A DNA stretch of 54,775 nt from Candidatus Kerfeldbacteria bacterium (GCA_018500015.2 JAHBAR020000033.1:1-54775), one strand, 5' to 3'. Counted from the first letter of the stretch, positions 1,708 to 33,852 are shown. The notes: generated by a model from the sequence alone, not told the origin. Numbers and translations: made by a program.

Positions 1708-2265
1708 ATGATTGAGAAACTTTTCGGCTCTCGTTCTCGTGTACGCATTTTGCAGTTATTGATGTTGCATCCCGAACAACGTTTTTATATTCGTGAGATC
1801 GCCCGCATGCTTAATGAACAAATGAACGCTGTACGCCGTGAGTTGAATAATTGCGAGAAGCTTGGGATCGTGACCGCCTCAGAACATCAACGTAAAAAAT
1901 ACTACTCAGTTGCCGCAAATCACAACATGATCCCTTTTTTACGCAATTTGTTGGTAACGGCGCTTTGGACATATGATGAGGCGTATATCAAGGCGCTTAC
2001 TGAGGCCGGCACAGTGAGCGGACTTCTTGTTCTTGGGTTTTTTATGGGTAACCATAATGACGCTCCTGTTGACGTGTGTATCATCGGTGACATTTCTTCT
2101 GATAAGGTGCGTCCATTGGTTGAAGTGTGGGAGAAGGAGCTGCATACGCATTTGCGTTATACCATGATGGCAAAGGATGAATATGCGTACCGTCTTTCTG
2201 TTTCAGACCGTTTTTTGCACAGCATTACTCAAGCGCCGCACATAGAGCTTATTTCACCAAAATAA
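1708..2265 (+). CDS. Winged-helix (ArsR-like) protein with degenerate nucleotidyltransferase-like C-terminal domain
   Basis: LFGSRSRVRILQLL...FYIREIARML...VRRELNNCEKLGIV forms the wHTH; PVDVCIIGD is an NTase-like strand. Confidence 0.7.
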   Translation: MIEKLFGSRSRVRILQLLMLHPEQRFYIREIARMLNEQMNAVRRELNNCEKLGIVTASEHQRKKYYSVAANHNMIPFLRNLLVTALWTYDEAYIKALTEAGTVSGLLVLGFFMGNHNDAPVDVCIIGDISSDKVRPLVEVWEKELHTHLRYTMMAKDEYAYRLSVSDRFLHSITQAPHIELISPK

Positions 2266-2269
2266 ATAT

Positions 2270-2689
2270 ATGCCTTTAGACACACAAGATGTGAATCGTC
2301 GCATCAATACAATCTCTCAACTTGCTATCATTATTGCGATCATTGCTGTTGTTTTTCTTATTGTTCTTTATGCTGTGCTGCGCAATCAACAAGAAGAGAT
2401 GCGTTCAGTAACAAACAATAACGTACATACAGAATCTATTTCCCAAACTCAATTAAGAGCATCAGATACGCAGTATGAAAATACCGTGAGCGCTCTTATA
2501 CAAGAGTATGTGAATGGTACGGCATCCGCACAACAGACAGGTCTAGAGTTAGAAAAGGTTTCTGTGACTTCAGCATATAAAAGCGTTCATGCGCAATTGT
2601 CAGCACTTTTTTTTGGAGTGCTCTCTGATGAGGATAAAAAAGCGCAGCTTATTGAAATGGATCAGCAGTATAGCTGGATGATTCCGTAG
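2270..2689 (+). CDS. Hypothetical single-pass membrane protein
   Basis: N-terminal hydrophobic helix; operonic spacing with neighbours. Confidence 0.7.
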   Translation: MPLDTQDVNRRINTISQLAIIIAIIAVVFLIVLYAVLRNQQEEMRSVTNNNVHTESISQTQLRASDTQYENTVSALIQEYVNGTASAQQTGLELEKVSVTSAYKSVHAQLSALFFGVLSDEDKKAQLIEMDQQYSWMIP

Positions 2690-2692
2690 CAT

Positions 2693-3460
2693 ATGATACT
2701 TGCACGACGCATCCTTCCATTTTTTGCTCCACTCGTCTTCGCGTTAGTGTTTGTCGGTTTGCTTACATCTGTCCACTTGCTTTGGTGGTGGGTGGCTATG
2801 CTTTGTTTATCCGCATGTATATGTTCCGCTTTTTTACTTCAATGGAAAATATTTACCGCGCGTTTTTTTTGGATCACCATGCCGTTGTTGGTGTTGTTGC
2901 TGACAAGCGCGGGAGTGATGGTGATGGTACCAAGCGCCTCTATTCGTATTGCATATGCATGTGTAGCTGTTGTGATGGCCGGTGTCTACATTGAAGATGT
3001 ATTTATTCTTTTTTTTCAAGCACACAAGTATACTCAACTCTCTTTGCCGCAGTTTTGTATTTTTCTCAATGTATGGAGCGCGTATGGTTTGGGTTTGGTG
3101 ATGTTTACAGTGCTGTTGTTACACCTCGCGCCGTTGTGGGTGTTGCTACTCTCGGCCGGTGTCTTTGGTTTGTATATCGGAGGGCACGTGTTGTGGAGTT
3201 TTGCCTTATGGAAAAAAACGCTATGGGTCATACCGCTCATTTCAGTCGCATTAGTGGTTGAGTGTACATGGGTGCTGACGCTCTTGCCGTTCTCATTTAT
3301 TGTGAGCGCATTTTTGCTCTGTATTCTGGTGTATATTTTACTCACATTCATTCAGCTTATTTATCGCAATGCGTTTACGTTTGATACAGTGATGCGCCCA
3401 ACAGTCATTGCTCTTGTTGGGTCAATAGCTATTTTACTCACCACTCGTTGGTTTTATTAA
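2693..3460 (+). CDS. Hypothetical polytopic membrane protein
   Basis: About 8-9 hydrophobic segments. Confidence 0.75.
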   Translation: MILARRILPFFAPLVFALVFVGLLTSVHLLWWWVAMLCLSACICSAFLLQWKIFTARFFWITMPLLVLLLTSAGVMVMVPSASIRIAYACVAVVMAGVYIEDVFILFFQAHKYTQLSLPQFCIFLNVWSAYGLGLVMFTVLLLHLAPLWVLLLSAGVFGLYIGGHVLWSFALWKKTLWVIPLISVALVVECTWVLTLLPFSFIVSAFLLCILVYILLTFIQLIYRNAFTFDTVMRPTVIALVGSIAILLTTRWFY

Positions 3461-29475: not shown

Positions 29476-31002
29476 CTAGTTTCGTGGGCGGATTTTGAGT
29501 ATGTCGAGGAATCGTCGATTCTTTTTGTTTGTGTAGCTTCGAATGTGATGGCGTGCGTTATTTGTTTTGACAAACTCGAGCCAATCAGCTGAAGGGCCCT
29601 TGCGTTGAGGGTTCACAAGAATTTCAACCACGTCACCGTTTTTTAACGTAGTGTCTAGTGAAGCTTGTTGATCGTTAATGCGCACTCCTGAACACGTATT
29701 TCCTAAATCAGAGTGAATGCGGTAGGCAAAATCGACGGGTGTTGCTTCTTCTGGAAGCTCAATTACATCACCGCGTGGAGTGAAAACGAAAATATGATTT
29801 TGGAAAAAGTCAATTTTAAGATCTTCCAAAAATTGTTCACCTGATTTTTCTTGTATTTGCAATGCAGCAAGGTCGCGCACCCACGCCATTTTTTGATCAA
29901 TCGCCCCTTTTGATTTTGGACGCTCTTTATATTTCCAGTGTGCAGCAATACCGTACTCGGCCTCTTCGTGCATTTCGGGTGTACGAATTTGAATCTCTAT
30001 GATTTCTGCATTCTCACCAGATGGAATAAATTGTGGCGGAGCAAAAACAGTGGTGTGCAGCGATTGATAACCGTTTGGCTTCGGCTGGGCGATGTAATCT
30101 TTGATGCGCCCTTTCAGTGGTTTACAGACTTCGTGCACAATACCGAGTGCCGCATAACACATTGCAATATTTGGCACAAGAACTCGCACAGCAACGAGGT
30201 CGTATACTTTTTCAATGTCACGTTGATGTTTGATCAGTTTTTTGTATGTTGAAAATAAATGCTTTGCGCGACCATGAATGGAGAGTACAGACACATCGTG
30301 CGTGGTAAACGCGTCCATGAGAAATTGTTGAAAGCCCTCAACAAATTTTTCCTTTTCTTTAAACTGCGGCAAGATTTTCTTTGTGAGCCATTTGTACTCT
30401 TCTGGGTAGACATATGGAAACGCCAAATCCTCGATGCGGCCTTTGATAATGCCCATGCCTAAGCGATTTGCAATCGGTGCAAAAATTTCCAAGCTTTCAA
30501 GAGCAACACGTTTTTGTTTTTCAGGAGGGAGCGCATCAAGCGTTTCGAGGTTGTCGATGCGATCGGCAAACTTAATCAAGATAACGCGCACATCTTGCGC
30601 CATTGCAACAAACATCCGACGCAAATTTTCGACATACCGATCGGCACCGCGATATTTGAGCTTGCCCAGCTTGGTGATTCCTTCAACCAATGTTGCAATT
30701 TCTTTTCCAAATCGCGCTTCGATATCCTCAAGTGTTTTTTCTGTATCTTCAGGAACATCATGGAGTAGAGTTGCCGCAATAGTGCGTTCATCAAGGCCGA
30801 GGTCGGCGAGTGTCATCGCAGCGCCAAGCGGATGCACGATGTATGGCATGCCAGATTTGCGCAGCTGTGGACCGTGCGCATCTTTGGCAAATATAAATGC
30901 TTCTCGAATTAGCTGTCCATCGCAACTGGGATGGTACGATTGAACAGTATGAACGACATCGTCGATTGTTTTACCATGAATGTTTTGAATTGCACCTTCC
31001 AT
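29476..31002 (-). CDS. relA: Short RelA/SpoT homologue (HD + synthetase + TGS)
   Basis: PYIVHP, LLHDVPED, ADRIDN, RIKDY, YQSLHT, EIQIRT, TPVDFAYRIH. Likely true start MEGAIQ at 31002; no ACT domain. Confidence 0.9.
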   Translation of the reverse strand: MEGAIQNIHGKTIDDVVHTVQSYHPSCDGQLIREAFIFAKDAHGPQLRKSGMPYIVHPLGAAMTLADLGLDERTIAATLLHDVPEDTEKTLEDIEARFGKEIATLVEGITKLGKLKYRGADRYVENLRRMFVAMAQDVRVILIKFADRIDNLETLDALPPEKQKRVALESLEIFAPIANRLGMGIIKGRIEDLAFPYVYPEEYKWLTKKILPQFKEKEKFVEGFQQFLMDAFTTHDVSVLSIHGRAKHLFSTYKKLIKHQRDIEKVYDLVAVRVLVPNIAMCYAALGIVHEVCKPLKGRIKDYIAQPKPNGYQSLHTTVFAPPQFIPSGENAEIIEIQIRTPEMHEEAEYGIAAHWKYKERPKSKGAIDQKMAWVRDLAALQIQEKSGEQFLEDLKIDFFQNHIFVFTPRGDVIELPEEATPVDFAYRIHSDLGNTCSGVRINDQQASLDTTLKNGDVVEILVNPQRKGPSADWLEFVKTNNARHHIRSYTNKKNRRFLDILKIRPRN

Positions 31003-31036
31003 ATATGGCGTATACTCTAGCGCTAAAATGCTTTGC

Positions 31037-31066
31037 TTGACAAGAGCTCTCTTTGTAAAGTAACCT
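31037..31066 (+). promoter_or_regulatory. Putative promoter of the large ncRNA
   Basis: TTGACA-18nt-TAACCT; no plus-strand CDS downstream. Confidence 0.6.
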
Positions 31067-31072
31067 GTCGCC

Positions 31073-31476
31073 ACTTTTACAGAGACAGTAGGCGGAGGAA
31101 AGCCTGCTGTATATCGTGTGTAGAGCTCACACTGTCGCGGCCCTAAGCCGATAGGGTGCTGTGCTTTGTTCTCGCACATGATTTGTGGGCGGTGACGTTG
31201 TTCTCCCAACGTCGGCTGGGATCGCGATTGAGCGGTCGCAGATGAACATGAGAGCTCCGCAGAGGCTCTCTGAAAGATTGTCTTCCTTGGACGCTGCGTA
31301 GAGGTACTCGAGTCGAGGCCGCAGCAAAAAAGGAGTGGTGTGAGTTTATGAAGCGAATGCGACTCGCAAGAGTCGCTCCACTGGCGATTGCCAATTAGCT
31401 TCTGCTCACTGCTGCTCATAGGCAGTCGGAAAAAATGTTCATCAAATCCCGGCAAACCGTTAACACCTCTGTAGAA
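31073..31476 (+). ncRNA. Unidentified ~400-nt highly structured RNA
   Basis: Nested long-range helices plus about 8 local hairpins; G-U pairs and a GCAA tetraloop favour the plus strand (see findings). Confidence 0.7.
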
Positions 31477-31477
31477 T

Positions 31478-31565
31478 AGCTTTTGATGTGTCTCTCATTG
31501 ATGCGCGCCAGCCTCCTAAGGGCGCCGCAGCATGAATAGAGCACCTCTCAAAAGCTTTTCTTTTT
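31478..31565 (+). terminator. Long hairpin + U tract between the ncRNA and convergent topA
   Basis: AGCTTTTGA...TCAAAAGCT closes an ~80-nt irregular hairpin, followed by TTTCTTTTT. Confidence 0.5.
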
Positions 31566-31573
31566 GAAAACAT

Positions 31574-33769
31574 TTAGAGAGCGGTGGGTTGAATGGTGTA
31601 TGTACACTCTTTGCTCGAACATTTGATCGATCCTTTTGGACCAAAGACAAGCAAGCTTTTGCACACTGGGCAGACTTCGCCGGTGGGCTTTGTCCAGAAC
31701 GCGGTTTTGCATTCAGGGTAGCGATTGCATGAGTAAAATGATTTACCGTATCGTGAGCGCTTTTCAATGAGGTCGCCTTCGTTGCAGGTTGGGCACTTGA
31801 TGCCGATTTTTTTCTCGATGTTCATGATATTCTTGCACTCTGGGTATCCGGAGCAGGCGAGGAATTGACCATATCGACCATTTTTGCGCACCATCGGTTT
31901 ACCACACTTGTCGCACTTGATGTCGATCGGCTCTTCTTTTACGATGTGGCCTTCTTTGTCGATTTGTTGGGTAGTTTTGCATTCAGGGTAGCCAGTGCAT
32001 GCGAGGAATTTACCGAAACGACCAAATTTGACGATCATCGGTTTACCACACTTTGGACATTTTTCGTCAGATTTTTCTTCAACGATGTCGCTCTTCTGAA
32101 TCTCTTTTTCTTTTTGAATGAGATGTTCTTTAAATGGACCATAAAACTCTTTGAGCACAGGTTGCCATTCTTTTTCACCTTCTGCGATGTGATCCAGACT
32201 CAGTTCCATGTTTGCGGTGAAATCAAAATCAACAATTTCAGGGAAGTGTTCGACGAGGAGATCGTTGACCAAAAATCCAACCTCTTCTGGAATAAGTGAG
32301 CGTTGCTCTTTGCGCACGTAGCCACGATCTTGCACCGTCGCAATTGTTGGTGCGTACGTTGAAGGGCGACCGATGCCACGCTCTTCTAATGCTTTGACGA
32401 GCGCAGCTTCTGTGTAGCGCGCTGGTGGTTCGGTGAAATGTTGCTTACCTTCCACGCCCGCGCAACTCAGCTCTTGTTTTTCTTTAAGAGTTGGAAGTTC
32501 ATTGTCAGTATTTTTTTCTGGCATTGCAGCAATCCACCCTGGGAATTCGATCATCGAGCCAGTGAGGCGGAACACACCCTCGTTTGCCGCGATGTCGATT
32601 GTGGTTGCTTTGTAGCGCGCAGCAGACATTTGTGATGCTACAGCGCGGCGCCAAATCAAATCGTACATTTTGAACTGTTTTGGATCCAAGTGTGACTTGA
32701 TGCTTTCAGGGGTGATCGAGACATCGGTAGGACGAATGGCTTCGTGTGCTTCTTGAGCGCCTTTGGATTTTGTTTTGTAGGTTGTGCGTGCGGAGTATTC
32801 TTTGCCAAATTCTTTGGTGATCATCGCTTCTGCTTCTGACAAAAACTTCTCTGACAAATTGAGTGAGTCAGTACGCATGTACGTAATCAAGCCTGTGGAC
32901 GCGCCGTCGACCTCAACACCTTCGTAGAGTTGTTGAGCAAGCATCATCGTTTGTTTCGCAGAATACCCTAAACGGTTGTTCGACTCTTGCTGCAAAGTGG
33001 ATGTGGTGAACGGTGCTGATGCTTTGCGTGTGCGTTCTTTGTATTCAATCGAAGTGATAGTGTGTTTTGCATCATTGAGTGAAGCGAGCATCTTATCCGC
33101 CTCCTCTTTGTTTTCGATCGACAATTTTTTGAGCGCTTCACCTTTATATGAGTGTAAGTTGGCAATGTGCTCAACACCTTCGACAGTATACTTTGCTTCA
33201 ATCGACCAATACTCTTCTGGTTTGAATGCCGCAATGGAGCGCTCACGCTCAACAATCAAGCGCACGACAACAGATTGGACGCGACCAGCAGACAATCCAC
33301 GGTACACTTTTTTCCAAAGAAAAGGGGAGAGTTCATAGCCAACGAGGCGATCGAGGATGCGACGTGCTTGTTGTGCGTCTACCAAGCGAATATCAAGCTT
33401 CCGTGGGTGTTCCAAAGCGCCTAAGATCGCTTCTTTGGTGATTTCGTGAAACGTGATGCGTTTCATGTGATCGACATCACCCAAAATTTCGCGTAAGTGC
33501 CAAGCTATCGCTTCTCCTTCACGGTCTTCGTCAGTTGCGAGATAAATTTCGTCCGCTTTTTTCGCGAGCTTCTTTAGTTCCGTGACATGTTTTTTACTCT
33601 TCATCGGCACGATATACGTCGGCTCGAAGTTGTGCTCGACATCAACACCAATTTTGCTTTTTGGTAAATCACGTACGTGACCAAATGATGAAGTCACGGT
33701 GTACCCTTTACCTAAAAATCGAGTAATAGTTTTTGCTTTTGTTGGAGATTCGACGATGACAAGCTTCAT
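31574..33769 (-). CDS. topA: DNA topoisomerase I with C-terminal Zn ribbons
   Basis: MKLVIVESPTKAKTI, ATDEDREGEAI, SAGRVQS, LITYMRTDS, QEAHEAIRPT, GIGRPSTYA, repeated CPKC...FLACTGYPEC. Confidence 0.96.
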   Translation of the reverse strand: MKLVIVESPTKAKTITRFLGKGYTVTSSFGHVRDLPKSKIGVDVEHNFEPTYIVPMKSKKHVTELKKLAKKADEIYLATDEDREGEAIAWHLREILGDVDHMKRITFHEITKEAILGALEHPRKLDIRLVDAQQARRILDRLVGYELSPFLWKKVYRGLSAGRVQSVVVRLIVERERSIAAFKPEEYWSIEAKYTVEGVEHIANLHSYKGEALKKLSIENKEEADKMLASLNDAKHTITSIEYKERTRKASAPFTTSTLQQESNNRLGYSAKQTMMLAQQLYEGVEVDGASTGLITYMRTDSLNLSEKFLSEAEAMITKEFGKEYSARTTYKTKSKGAQEAHEAIRPTDVSITPESIKSHLDPKQFKMYDLIWRRAVASQMSAARYKATTIDIAANEGVFRLTGSMIEFPGWIAAMPEKNTDNELPTLKEKQELSCAGVEGKQHFTEPPARYTEAALVKALEERGIGRPSTYAPTIATVQDRGYVRKEQRSLIPEEVGFLVNDLLVEHFPEIVDFDFTANMELSLDHIAEGEKEWQPVLKEFYGPFKEHLIQKEKEIQKSDIVEEKSDEKCPKCGKPMIVKFGRFGKFLACTGYPECKTTQQIDKEGHIVKEEPIDIKCDKCGKPMVRKNGRYGQFLACSGYPECKNIMNIEKKIGIKCPTCNEGDLIEKRSRYGKSFYSCNRYPECKTAFWTKPTGEVCPVCKSLLVFGPKGSIKCSSKECTYTIQPTAL

Positions 33770-33852
33770 GCGGGTGAAAAAAGTGTTAATGCCACAGTTA
33801 TACACTGCCATTGTTTTTTTTGTCAATCAGTGATACGTTGCACGGAAGAATT

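Follow-up and report, generated by a model that had tools for sequence, protein, structure and literature searches.

The window analysed here is a stretch of 54,775 nucleotides (nt) from Candidatus Kerfeldbacteria bacterium (GCA_018500015.2, JAHBAR020000033.1:1-54775), and the element in question lies on its plus strand between rel, the gene of a RelA/SpoT-type (p)ppGpp enzyme, and topA. We lean towards the explanation that positions ~31073-31565 (+) constitute the gene for a non-coding RNA of ~495 nt, whose product would act in trans as a folded scaffold. A real, selected RNA structure at this site is highly probable; that such a structure, once granted, serves as a trans-acting scaffold is a judgement by analogy that stands at even or slightly better. 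The initial annotation had proposed an unrecognised, large, standalone plus-strand RNA divergent from rel, and this central proposal is supported by the present analysis. The verdict reached is that the RNA belongs to a real, lineage-restricted and fast-evolving family of large structured RNAs outside Rfam. This family is best explained as RNAs of 470-920 nt that are encoded antisense to topA and rel in the spacer separating these genes, and that occur in half of the genomes sampled from one Magasanikbacteria-related family of the candidate phyla radiation.

The argument turns on what has been kept and what has been lost. Across six genera, the position, the orientation, the promoter and terminator design and the architecture are retained, while sequence turnover is near-complete. 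Conservation of position, design and architecture despite this turnover argues for selection on the folded RNA, which implies that the RNA is made and that its shape matters. Likewise, a shape kept while nearly all letters change points to a stably folded particle that may act in trans.

The sequence and coordinates of the element were confirmed. The minimum free energy (MFE) fold of the plus strand over 31037-31480 has -173.8 kcal/mol and contains all five of the nested long-range helices that had been claimed from inspection, with pair probabilities (p) of 0.91-0.99. The parts of the proposed gene are given below, together with their counterparts in the closest homologue, locus L165.

31037-31066, plus strand: putative RNA promoter, with a -35 element TTGACA (31037-31042), an 18-nt spacer and a -10 element TAACCT (31061-31066)
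31075-31084, plus strand: 5' strand of the closing helix P1 (UUUUACAGAG), pairing with 31467-31476 over 10 base pairs (bp), p 0.96
31085-31110, plus strand: hairpin hp1, 9 bp, loop GGAGGAAA, p 0.99; L165 counterpart 24-44
31113-31182, plus strand: domain 2, a branched hairpin domain with the apex words CGCGGCC (31136-31142) and GGUGCUGUGC (31155-31164)
31188-31213, plus strand: 5' strand of P4 (31188-31193, pairing with 31456-31461, p 0.91) and its side hairpin (31194-31213, p 1.00); L165 helix 126-133:381-388 and hairpin 134-152
31215-31239, plus strand: 5' strand of P6 (31215-31222, pairing with 31446-31453, p 0.97) and its side hairpin (31224-31239, p 0.89); L165 helix 153-162:369-378 and hairpin 163-180
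31241-31270, plus strand: 5' strand of P8 (31241-31249, pairing with 31435-31443, p 0.99) and its side hairpin (31250-31270, p 0.88); L165 helix 182-189:360-367 and hairpin 190-210
31276-31427, plus strand: inner domain, closed by GAUUGUCU/AGGCAGUC (31276-31283 with 31420-31427, p 0.95), holding a GCAA-capped hairpin at 31359-31376; the least conserved part
31435-31476, plus strand: 3' strands of P8, P6, P4 and P1, with linkers of 1-2 nt, mostly A
31478-31565, plus strand: long 3' hairpin (31478-31556), then UUUCUUUUU (31557-31565), terminator-like for the plus strand

The smaller elements of the first description fared unevenly. Six of the eight junction hairpins occur in the MFE fold (ACAGTAGGC/GCCTGCTGT, GACGTTG/CAACGTC, GAGAGC/GCTCTC, GCTGC/GCAGC, GTGAG/CTCAC and GCGACTC-GCAA-GAGTCGC), and two do not. 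CCCTA/TAGGG is an alternative to CGGC/GCCG (p 0.56), and TGTGC/GCACA is not supported, as it competes with the helix AUCGUGUGU/GCACAUGAU (p 0.96), which the closest homologue matches with a counterpart. A kissing interaction had also been suggested and finds no support; the GGAGGA/UUCUCC complementarity is present in this RNA, whereas there are no loop pairs of at least 5 nt in L165, L168 and L170, and none at equivalent loops elsewhere. Upstream, the TTGACA of the claimed promoter is present, while its -10 element TAACCT is weak and was missed by a consensus scan; the predicted start of the RNA falls at ~31073, about 2 nt before the closing helix. The terminator-like hairpin downstream was borne out, since 31474-31560 folds with a z score of -5.0 and only the plus strand has UUUCUUUUU after it.

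The fold is more stable than its composition would lead one to expect. Against dinucleotide shuffles, the 444-nt stretch has a z score of -4.44 (0 of 100 shuffles as stable), and the core at 31075-31476 gave -7.0 (60 shuffles), -5.0 (60) and -5.4 (40) in three separate runs. Within the inner domain, an open reading frame (ORF) of 16 codons (MKRMRLARVAPLAIAN) was noted at 31348-31398 (+) with AAGGAG upstream; both are buried in helices, and the ORF is absent from the five homologues.

From these parts, we infer the following course of events. The RNA would be transcribed from its own promoter, and its first bases would pair with bases ~390 nt downstream to form P1. Enclosed by P1 would be a hairpin, a branched domain and long-range helices stacked into a 'comb', each of these helices carrying a side hairpin on its 5' strand and a mostly-A linker of 1-2 nt on its 3' strand. 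A comb with side hairpins and A-rich 3' linkers is what would be expected of a compact tertiary fold. The long 3' hairpin and the U-run would end the transcript, and the hairpin probably shields the 3' end. The RNA may then work in trans as a stable folded particle, either as a protein-binding or as a self-assembling scaffold; base-pairing with targets, peptide coding and a cis leader function are not favoured.

To find positional homologues, we took the rel loci of the 11 remaining genomes of the GTDB family, all with Rel proteins 63-68% identical to that of the window, and placed topA by tblastn. The topA-rel spacer is enlarged by 470-920 nt in six of the 12 family genomes, namely G000 (the source genome) and G007, G006, G003, G004 and G001, whose loci are named L165, L166, L167, L168 and L170, respectively; in the other six, it measures roughly 60-110 nt. 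The gathering of homologues thus yielded relatives at the same position, with a conserved architecture in which compensatory changes are wholesale. On the strand opposite rel, each of the six large spacers carries TTGAC(A/G), 17-18 nt and TAnnnT within 35-96 nt of the rel start, as well as a U-run 470-920 nt downstream. A closing helix begins 1-12 nt after the predicted start in every case and spans 325-707 nt. P1 has 8-10 bp in five of the six RNAs, and in L168 it is split into 3 bp and 5 bp with a loop between them. Inside P1, all six RNAs hold a hairpin, a branched domain and nested long-range helices, the nested comb being clearest in the RNA of the window (hereafter, the own RNA) and in L165, and looser in L168, L170, L166 and L167. 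A long 3' hairpin domain leads to the U-run directly after P1 in five of six, whereas L166 has an additional domain plus a short terminator hairpin there.

All six cores are more stable than their shuffles, with sense z scores of -5.4, -5.6, -6.2, -2.9, -3.2 and -5.3. Their shapes are also related: among five cores, tree-edit distances were below the shuffle means in 10 of 10 pairs (z -1.2 to -6.7). As to the history of the element, the Rel tree of the family gives no resolved branching: a single gain and an ancestral presence, each followed by losses, are both compatible with it, and the RNA gene may or may not have arisen only once.

The resemblance is strongest between the own RNA and L165. 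Folded independently, the two give the nearly identical level-5 shapes [[][][[][[][[][[][[][]]]]]]] and [[][][[][[][[][[][]]]]]]. Their HIT tree-edit distance is 197, against 387±28 and 390±28 for the MFE folds of shuffled partners; none of 300 shuffles came as close, and none of 300 had either shape. Ten helices correspond one to one, with starts within 13 nt in each RNA's numbering. At 40 of 70 pair positions both sides have changed and at 10 only one has, which leaves 20 unchanged. The 3' strands are consecutive in both RNAs with linkers of 1-2 nt, and those of L165 follow in the same order with the linkers G, AA and U. Letters are shared only at the apex of domain 2, where CGCGGCC and GGUGCUGUGC occur in both RNAs with the same offset of +8. 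By our own arithmetic, the chance of a common 10-mer between two 500-nt sequences is ~0.2, which is not rare; two common words at one offset in the same domain are rare. For the pair aligned with MAFFT, RNAalifold recovers the domain-2 apex with three compensatory cap pairs, plus hp1.

Several points weigh against a selected, trans-acting RNA and should be set beside this evidence. The -10 element in the window is weak, as noted above, and the structure of L170 and L166 is no more than moderate (z about -3). Distant pairs of cores are only modestly similar (z -1.2 to -3.0), and the cores were cut at their own predicted P1, which favours similarity over shuffles that are not closed in this way. 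The helix-by-helix count uses each RNA's own MFE helices, so that its figure of 0 broken pairs is true by construction. The alignment-based fold of the own RNA and L165 recovers hp1 and the domain-2 apex only and none of the long-range helices, and a family of six sequences is too small for a formal covariation test. A covariance model built on the inner domain of the single sequence (R1) found nothing in 140 relatives at E<=0.1 and nothing in 100 loci, and it missed the five homologues. Moreover, as nhmmer detects no similarity between any two of the six RNAs, the case for homology is built on position, design and predicted folds. Long-range pairing is by itself nothing out of the ordinary, since 10 of 60 shuffles equal the core in the number of pairs spanning >150 nt. 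Finally, z < -4 was obtained for 34 of the 82 ORF-free regions of the genome, the topA-rel spacer included, which ranked 34th (12 shuffles each). Strongly negative z scores are so common among ORF-free gaps that z alone would not have picked out this locus.

This last result bears on the view that the element is non-functional DNA, that is, a decayed gene or mobile element or hairpin-rich filler, with folds that resemble each other by chance or through shared mutational processes. We regard it as quite unlikely. Besides the abundance of low-z regions, some of which are long inverted or dispersed repeats, it can draw on the absence of the element from half of the family and on the lack of detectable sequence conservation. 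The low-z regions are a mixture that includes ribosomal RNA, transfer RNA (tRNA) with terminators, long inverted repeats and dispersed repeats, and the RNase P region of the same genome reached only -2.4 in the survey. Against this view, the element is single-copy: BLAST in its own genome returns only itself, and blastn at word size 7 gives only chance matches and no paralogue. No match was found by blastn in the phage and plasmid collections. A decayed HAD-like gene, such as the one at locus L099, was considered and rejected, as it has no similarity to the element (best E 0.12). Decay would not hold ten helices in register through letter change, and a strict screen of the genome's gaps for the same design gave one other candidate, which contains a tRNA.

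The low-z regions deserve mention in their own right. Apart from the topA-rel spacer, 33 of 81 ORF-free regions of at least 300 nt have z < -4, for example, C28:5303-5890, C45:4665-4992, C36:27884-28255, C4:35406-35949 and C24:2808-3404. The C28 region carries an inverted repeat with arms of ~100 bp, and C45, C36 and C28 have repeat segments in common.

Searches for sequence relatives were negative. BLAST found the element in none of 60 relatives, and nhmmer on rel loci taken from genome and metagenome collections, 80 at first and 160 later, gave nothing below E ~3. MAFFT on four spacers yielded an unusable alignment of 36-49% identity. The domain-2 motif gave 74 matches in viral contigs, which have 64% G+C and no extended similarity, and these were judged to be chance. 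Screening upstream of rel for the same design at 90 other loci with at least 450 nt upstream produced 0 further cases; both rows that passed represent one HAD-like protein gene, a false positive with a P1 p of 0.19. This gene, at 1868-2830 (-) of L099/L101, encodes a HAD-like hydrolase and is divergent from rel; its messenger RNA (mRNA) region folds at -403 kcal/mol over 963 nt. Another spacer of note lies between topA and rel on a metagenome contig (L138, 2387-2967) and holds several copies of a unit containing GCAATGACCA.

The strand of the element had been assigned in the initial annotation from G-U pairs, of which the plus fold has 19 and the minus fold 6-7. This argument proved weak, being explained by composition: composition-matched shuffles give a G-U difference of 7.6±3.1, with 3 of 60 reaching 13, and the plus-strand G excess is common to the flanks, the GC skew being similar across the region. 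The plus strand is better supported because the promoter and U-run take this orientation in all six homologues and because none of the six cores has a sense z above its antisense z. These same observations oppose a structure on the minus strand, where a folded spacer or leader within a topA-rel co-transcript would control rel. Such a leader would suit the position of both flanking genes on the minus strand, and the minus-strand fold does beat shuffles (z -3.5 to -4.4). It forms 124 pairs, however, against 144 in the plus-strand fold, which has no A-C mismatches, and rel has a promoter-like site of its own beside its ATG. Taken together, we give this explanation only a very slim chance.

The genes and sites that flank the RNA gene are the following.

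29476-31002, minus strand: rel, RelA/SpoT-type (p)ppGpp enzyme gene
31043-31038 and 31019-31014, minus strand: promoter-like site of rel, -35 TTGTCA and -10 TAGAGT, respectively, listed by the consensus scan
31574-33826, minus strand: topA, convergent with the RNA gene; tblastn of its product places topA beside rel in relatives

The spacer between the two genes measures 571 nt (31003-31573) in the window, which corresponds to contig C32 of an assembly of 1.07 Mb in 48 contigs (98.8% complete, no N runs). When contigs of the public sequencing runs X1-X3 were compared, one contig of X2 was found to cover 30000-32600 with zero differences; this run may be the source of the assembly and is hence not independent. 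The look-up of public runs listed no RNA run as a holder of the sequence. The best matches of the Rel protein of the window are in Magasanikbacteria-like and other candidate-phyla-radiation genomes, and many relatives have topA immediately upstream of rel, the spacer often being <100 nt. In the window, the rel frame can be read upstream of its ATG for another 151 codons without a stop, through the RNA gene (31003-31455, minus strand), giving 672 amino acids (aa) against 453-544 aa for the open rel frames of relatives, where no such extension occurs. We take this extension to be chance, its translation being unlike protein.

This arrangement would suit a cis role, in which transcription of the spacer and its hairpins would be what matters. 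Convergent transcription of topA would be halted by the 3' hairpin, competition between the RNA promoter and the back-to-back promoter of a leaderless rel would tune the level of the (p)ppGpp enzyme, and the fold would arise largely as a by-product. Both the location between topA and rel and the orientation are indeed identical in six of six. In the window, the -35 element of rel (31043-31038) overlaps that of the RNA gene (TTGACA, 31037-31042) on the other strand, and rel looks leaderless, with a TAGAGT-like -10 box 6-9 nt before its ATG in the own genome and in L165, L166, L167 and L168. In more distant relatives, other small RNA genes occupy the same place and strand. Yet no 400-nt multi-junction architecture held by compensatory change would be needed for an insulator or a competing promoter. 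The -35 elements do not overlap in L165 and L166, and in half of the family topA and rel are still adjacent while the element is missing. A cis role of this kind is therefore judged unlikely, and a trans-acting folded RNA is preferred. A cis leader or riboswitch was rejected on separate grounds, as the plus-strand element runs into the 3' end of convergent topA and has no downstream gene on the same strand. Complementarity of the six RNAs to the rel start region was not in excess (35, 33, 63, 50, 141 and 107 of 200 shuffles do as well) in a crude comparison that allowed very large loops.

The small RNA genes of the distant relatives form a separate observation. Two tandem genes, A and B, lie there between topA and rel, opposite rel, each with its own promoter and terminator. 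They were seen at L008/L089 (2724-2964), L093 (1776-2106), L095 (2688-2967) and L097 (2576-2979), and B also at L007, L103, L117/L118 and L120. The apical loop of hairpin B and the 5' part of A are complementary, with letters that co-vary from one locus to the next; neither gene has an Rfam match. No copy of A or B was found in the source genome by nhmmer, and the motifs of both are missing from all six large RNAs, so that a link between these and the small-RNA pair is only conjecture.

The possibility that the element is a known RNA was addressed with Rfam 15. At gathering thresholds, the whole window gave two tRNAs only. Over 30900-31700 at E<=10, only two microRNA models appeared, with 20.3 and 15.5 bits against gathering thresholds of 68 and 77, and the five homologous loci at E<=0.1 gave one match of 24.8 bits against a threshold of 114. 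The locus has no match to OLE, ROOL, GOLLD, raiA, HEARO, group I or II introns or riboswitches. The idea of an unrecognised RNA thus survives a comparison in which no family matched at gathering or at E<=10.

The housekeeping RNAs were considered one after another. RNase P RNA was rejected, as its models do not match the locus and rnpB lies elsewhere in the genome (C7:51355-51775, 123.1 bits). The same holds for transfer-messenger RNA (tmRNA), of which ARAGORN found none in the window and whose gene, ssrA, is on C36 (10609-11011, 72 bits); the expectation that both genes exist elsewhere was thereby confirmed. The new RNA resembles these two in its size and in a closing helix formed from its two ends, and it differs from them in that each has its own copy elsewhere.

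More attention is due to an analogue of a housekeeping RNA that standard models miss, for example, a greatly expanded, RNA polymerase-binding RNA of the 6S or Ms1 type. 6S-type RNAs have a conserved shape and poor sequence conservation. No 6S RNA was detected in this genome, and the predicted RNA shares with 6S and Ms1 the paired 5' and 3' ends, a shape conserved over sequence and, as predicted, independent transcription from a gene of its own. On the other side, the locus has no 6S match even at E<=10, and a multi-branched fold of ~500 nt differs from the 6S rod of ~185 nt with its central bubble. Furthermore, a core function would not be expected in only six of the 12 family genomes. 6S RNA itself was accordingly rejected, and an analogue of it appears very unlikely.

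The role of signal recognition particle (SRP) RNA is excluded by the genome itself, in which RF00169 and RF01854 are unmatched and neither Ffh, an SRP54-type GTPase nor FtsY was found. In detail, the genome lacks matches to the Ffh M domain (PF02978) and to ftsY (TIGR00064), and none over the cut-off to the SRP54-type GTPase PF00448. A tblastn search of it with Escherichia coli FtsY reached a best E of 0.7, against 2.7e-56 for the FtsE control, and a search for SRP-like helix-8 motifs gave nothing convincing. As an observation beyond the present locus, RF00169 matched neither the own genome nor any of 36 relatives or 121 genomes sampled from the phylum, and PF00448 matched none of 101 phylum genomes at E<=1e-10. 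A literature search on the absence of SRP in this phylum found nothing. The absence of the SRP system, if true for the phylum, would be remarkable.

A type I toxin mRNA was likewise rejected. The mRNAs of hok-type toxins show fold-back pairing of their 5' and 3' ends, and the likeness extends to an RNA of ~400 nt closed by 5'-3' pairing, with a 16-codon ORF and a Shine-Dalgarno-like sequence buried in helices. Unlike in those systems, no ORF or peptide is conserved, and no antisense partner was seen. The sole ORF with a Shine-Dalgarno-like sequence is the one of 16 codons, too short for a membrane toxin, and no conserved small ORF or common peptide was found among the six RNAs.

The closest comparison is with OLE, ROOL and GOLLD, the large 'ornate' bacterial non-coding RNAs (cf. 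PMC12286853). The topA-rel RNA is like them a stand-alone, non-coding gene of several hundred nt with many helices, multi-way junctions, a narrow range and a biochemical role that is not known, and it is from them that the idea of a scaffold or of self-assembly has been taken. Unlike them, it matches none of their Rfam models, lies in a housekeeping locus, has a far less conserved primary sequence and is confined so far to one candidate-phyla-radiation family. The contexts of OLE, ROOL and GOLLD are prophages, tRNA-rich regions or sites beside oap genes. In a full-text literature search, nothing was found linking the candidate phyla radiation to large structured RNAs. We rate the topA-rel RNA as a new family within the loose kind of 'large ornate bacterial RNAs'.

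Bacterial non-coding RNAs of >~400 nt with elaborate conserved folds are, to our knowledge, rare, and none is known from the candidate phyla radiation. Each such class so far has been unusual, and they comprise ribozymes, ribonucleoprotein machines and self-assembling cages. In its boldest form, the proposal is that this radiation has a large 'ornate' RNA class of its own, the present family being the first. On this reading, a particle of ~0.5-0.9 kb, chromosomal and inherited vertically, would have a comb of stacked three-way junctions maintained by selection although nearly all of its sequence turns over from genus to genus; it may have grown from the small-RNA pair of neighbouring lineages or replaced it. 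This is plausible, with a probability somewhat short of even.

The family is seen in six uncultured genomes only and is predicted from sequence. Within these bounds, it offers a natural experiment in RNA evolution, in which one architecture is written in almost unrelated sequences, and the own RNA and that of G007 provide two compact targets for chemical probing or cryo-electron microscopy. If the explanation is true, an abundant scaffold RNA in genomes of ~1 Mb would suggest an RNA-based function that is indispensable to such reduced cells.

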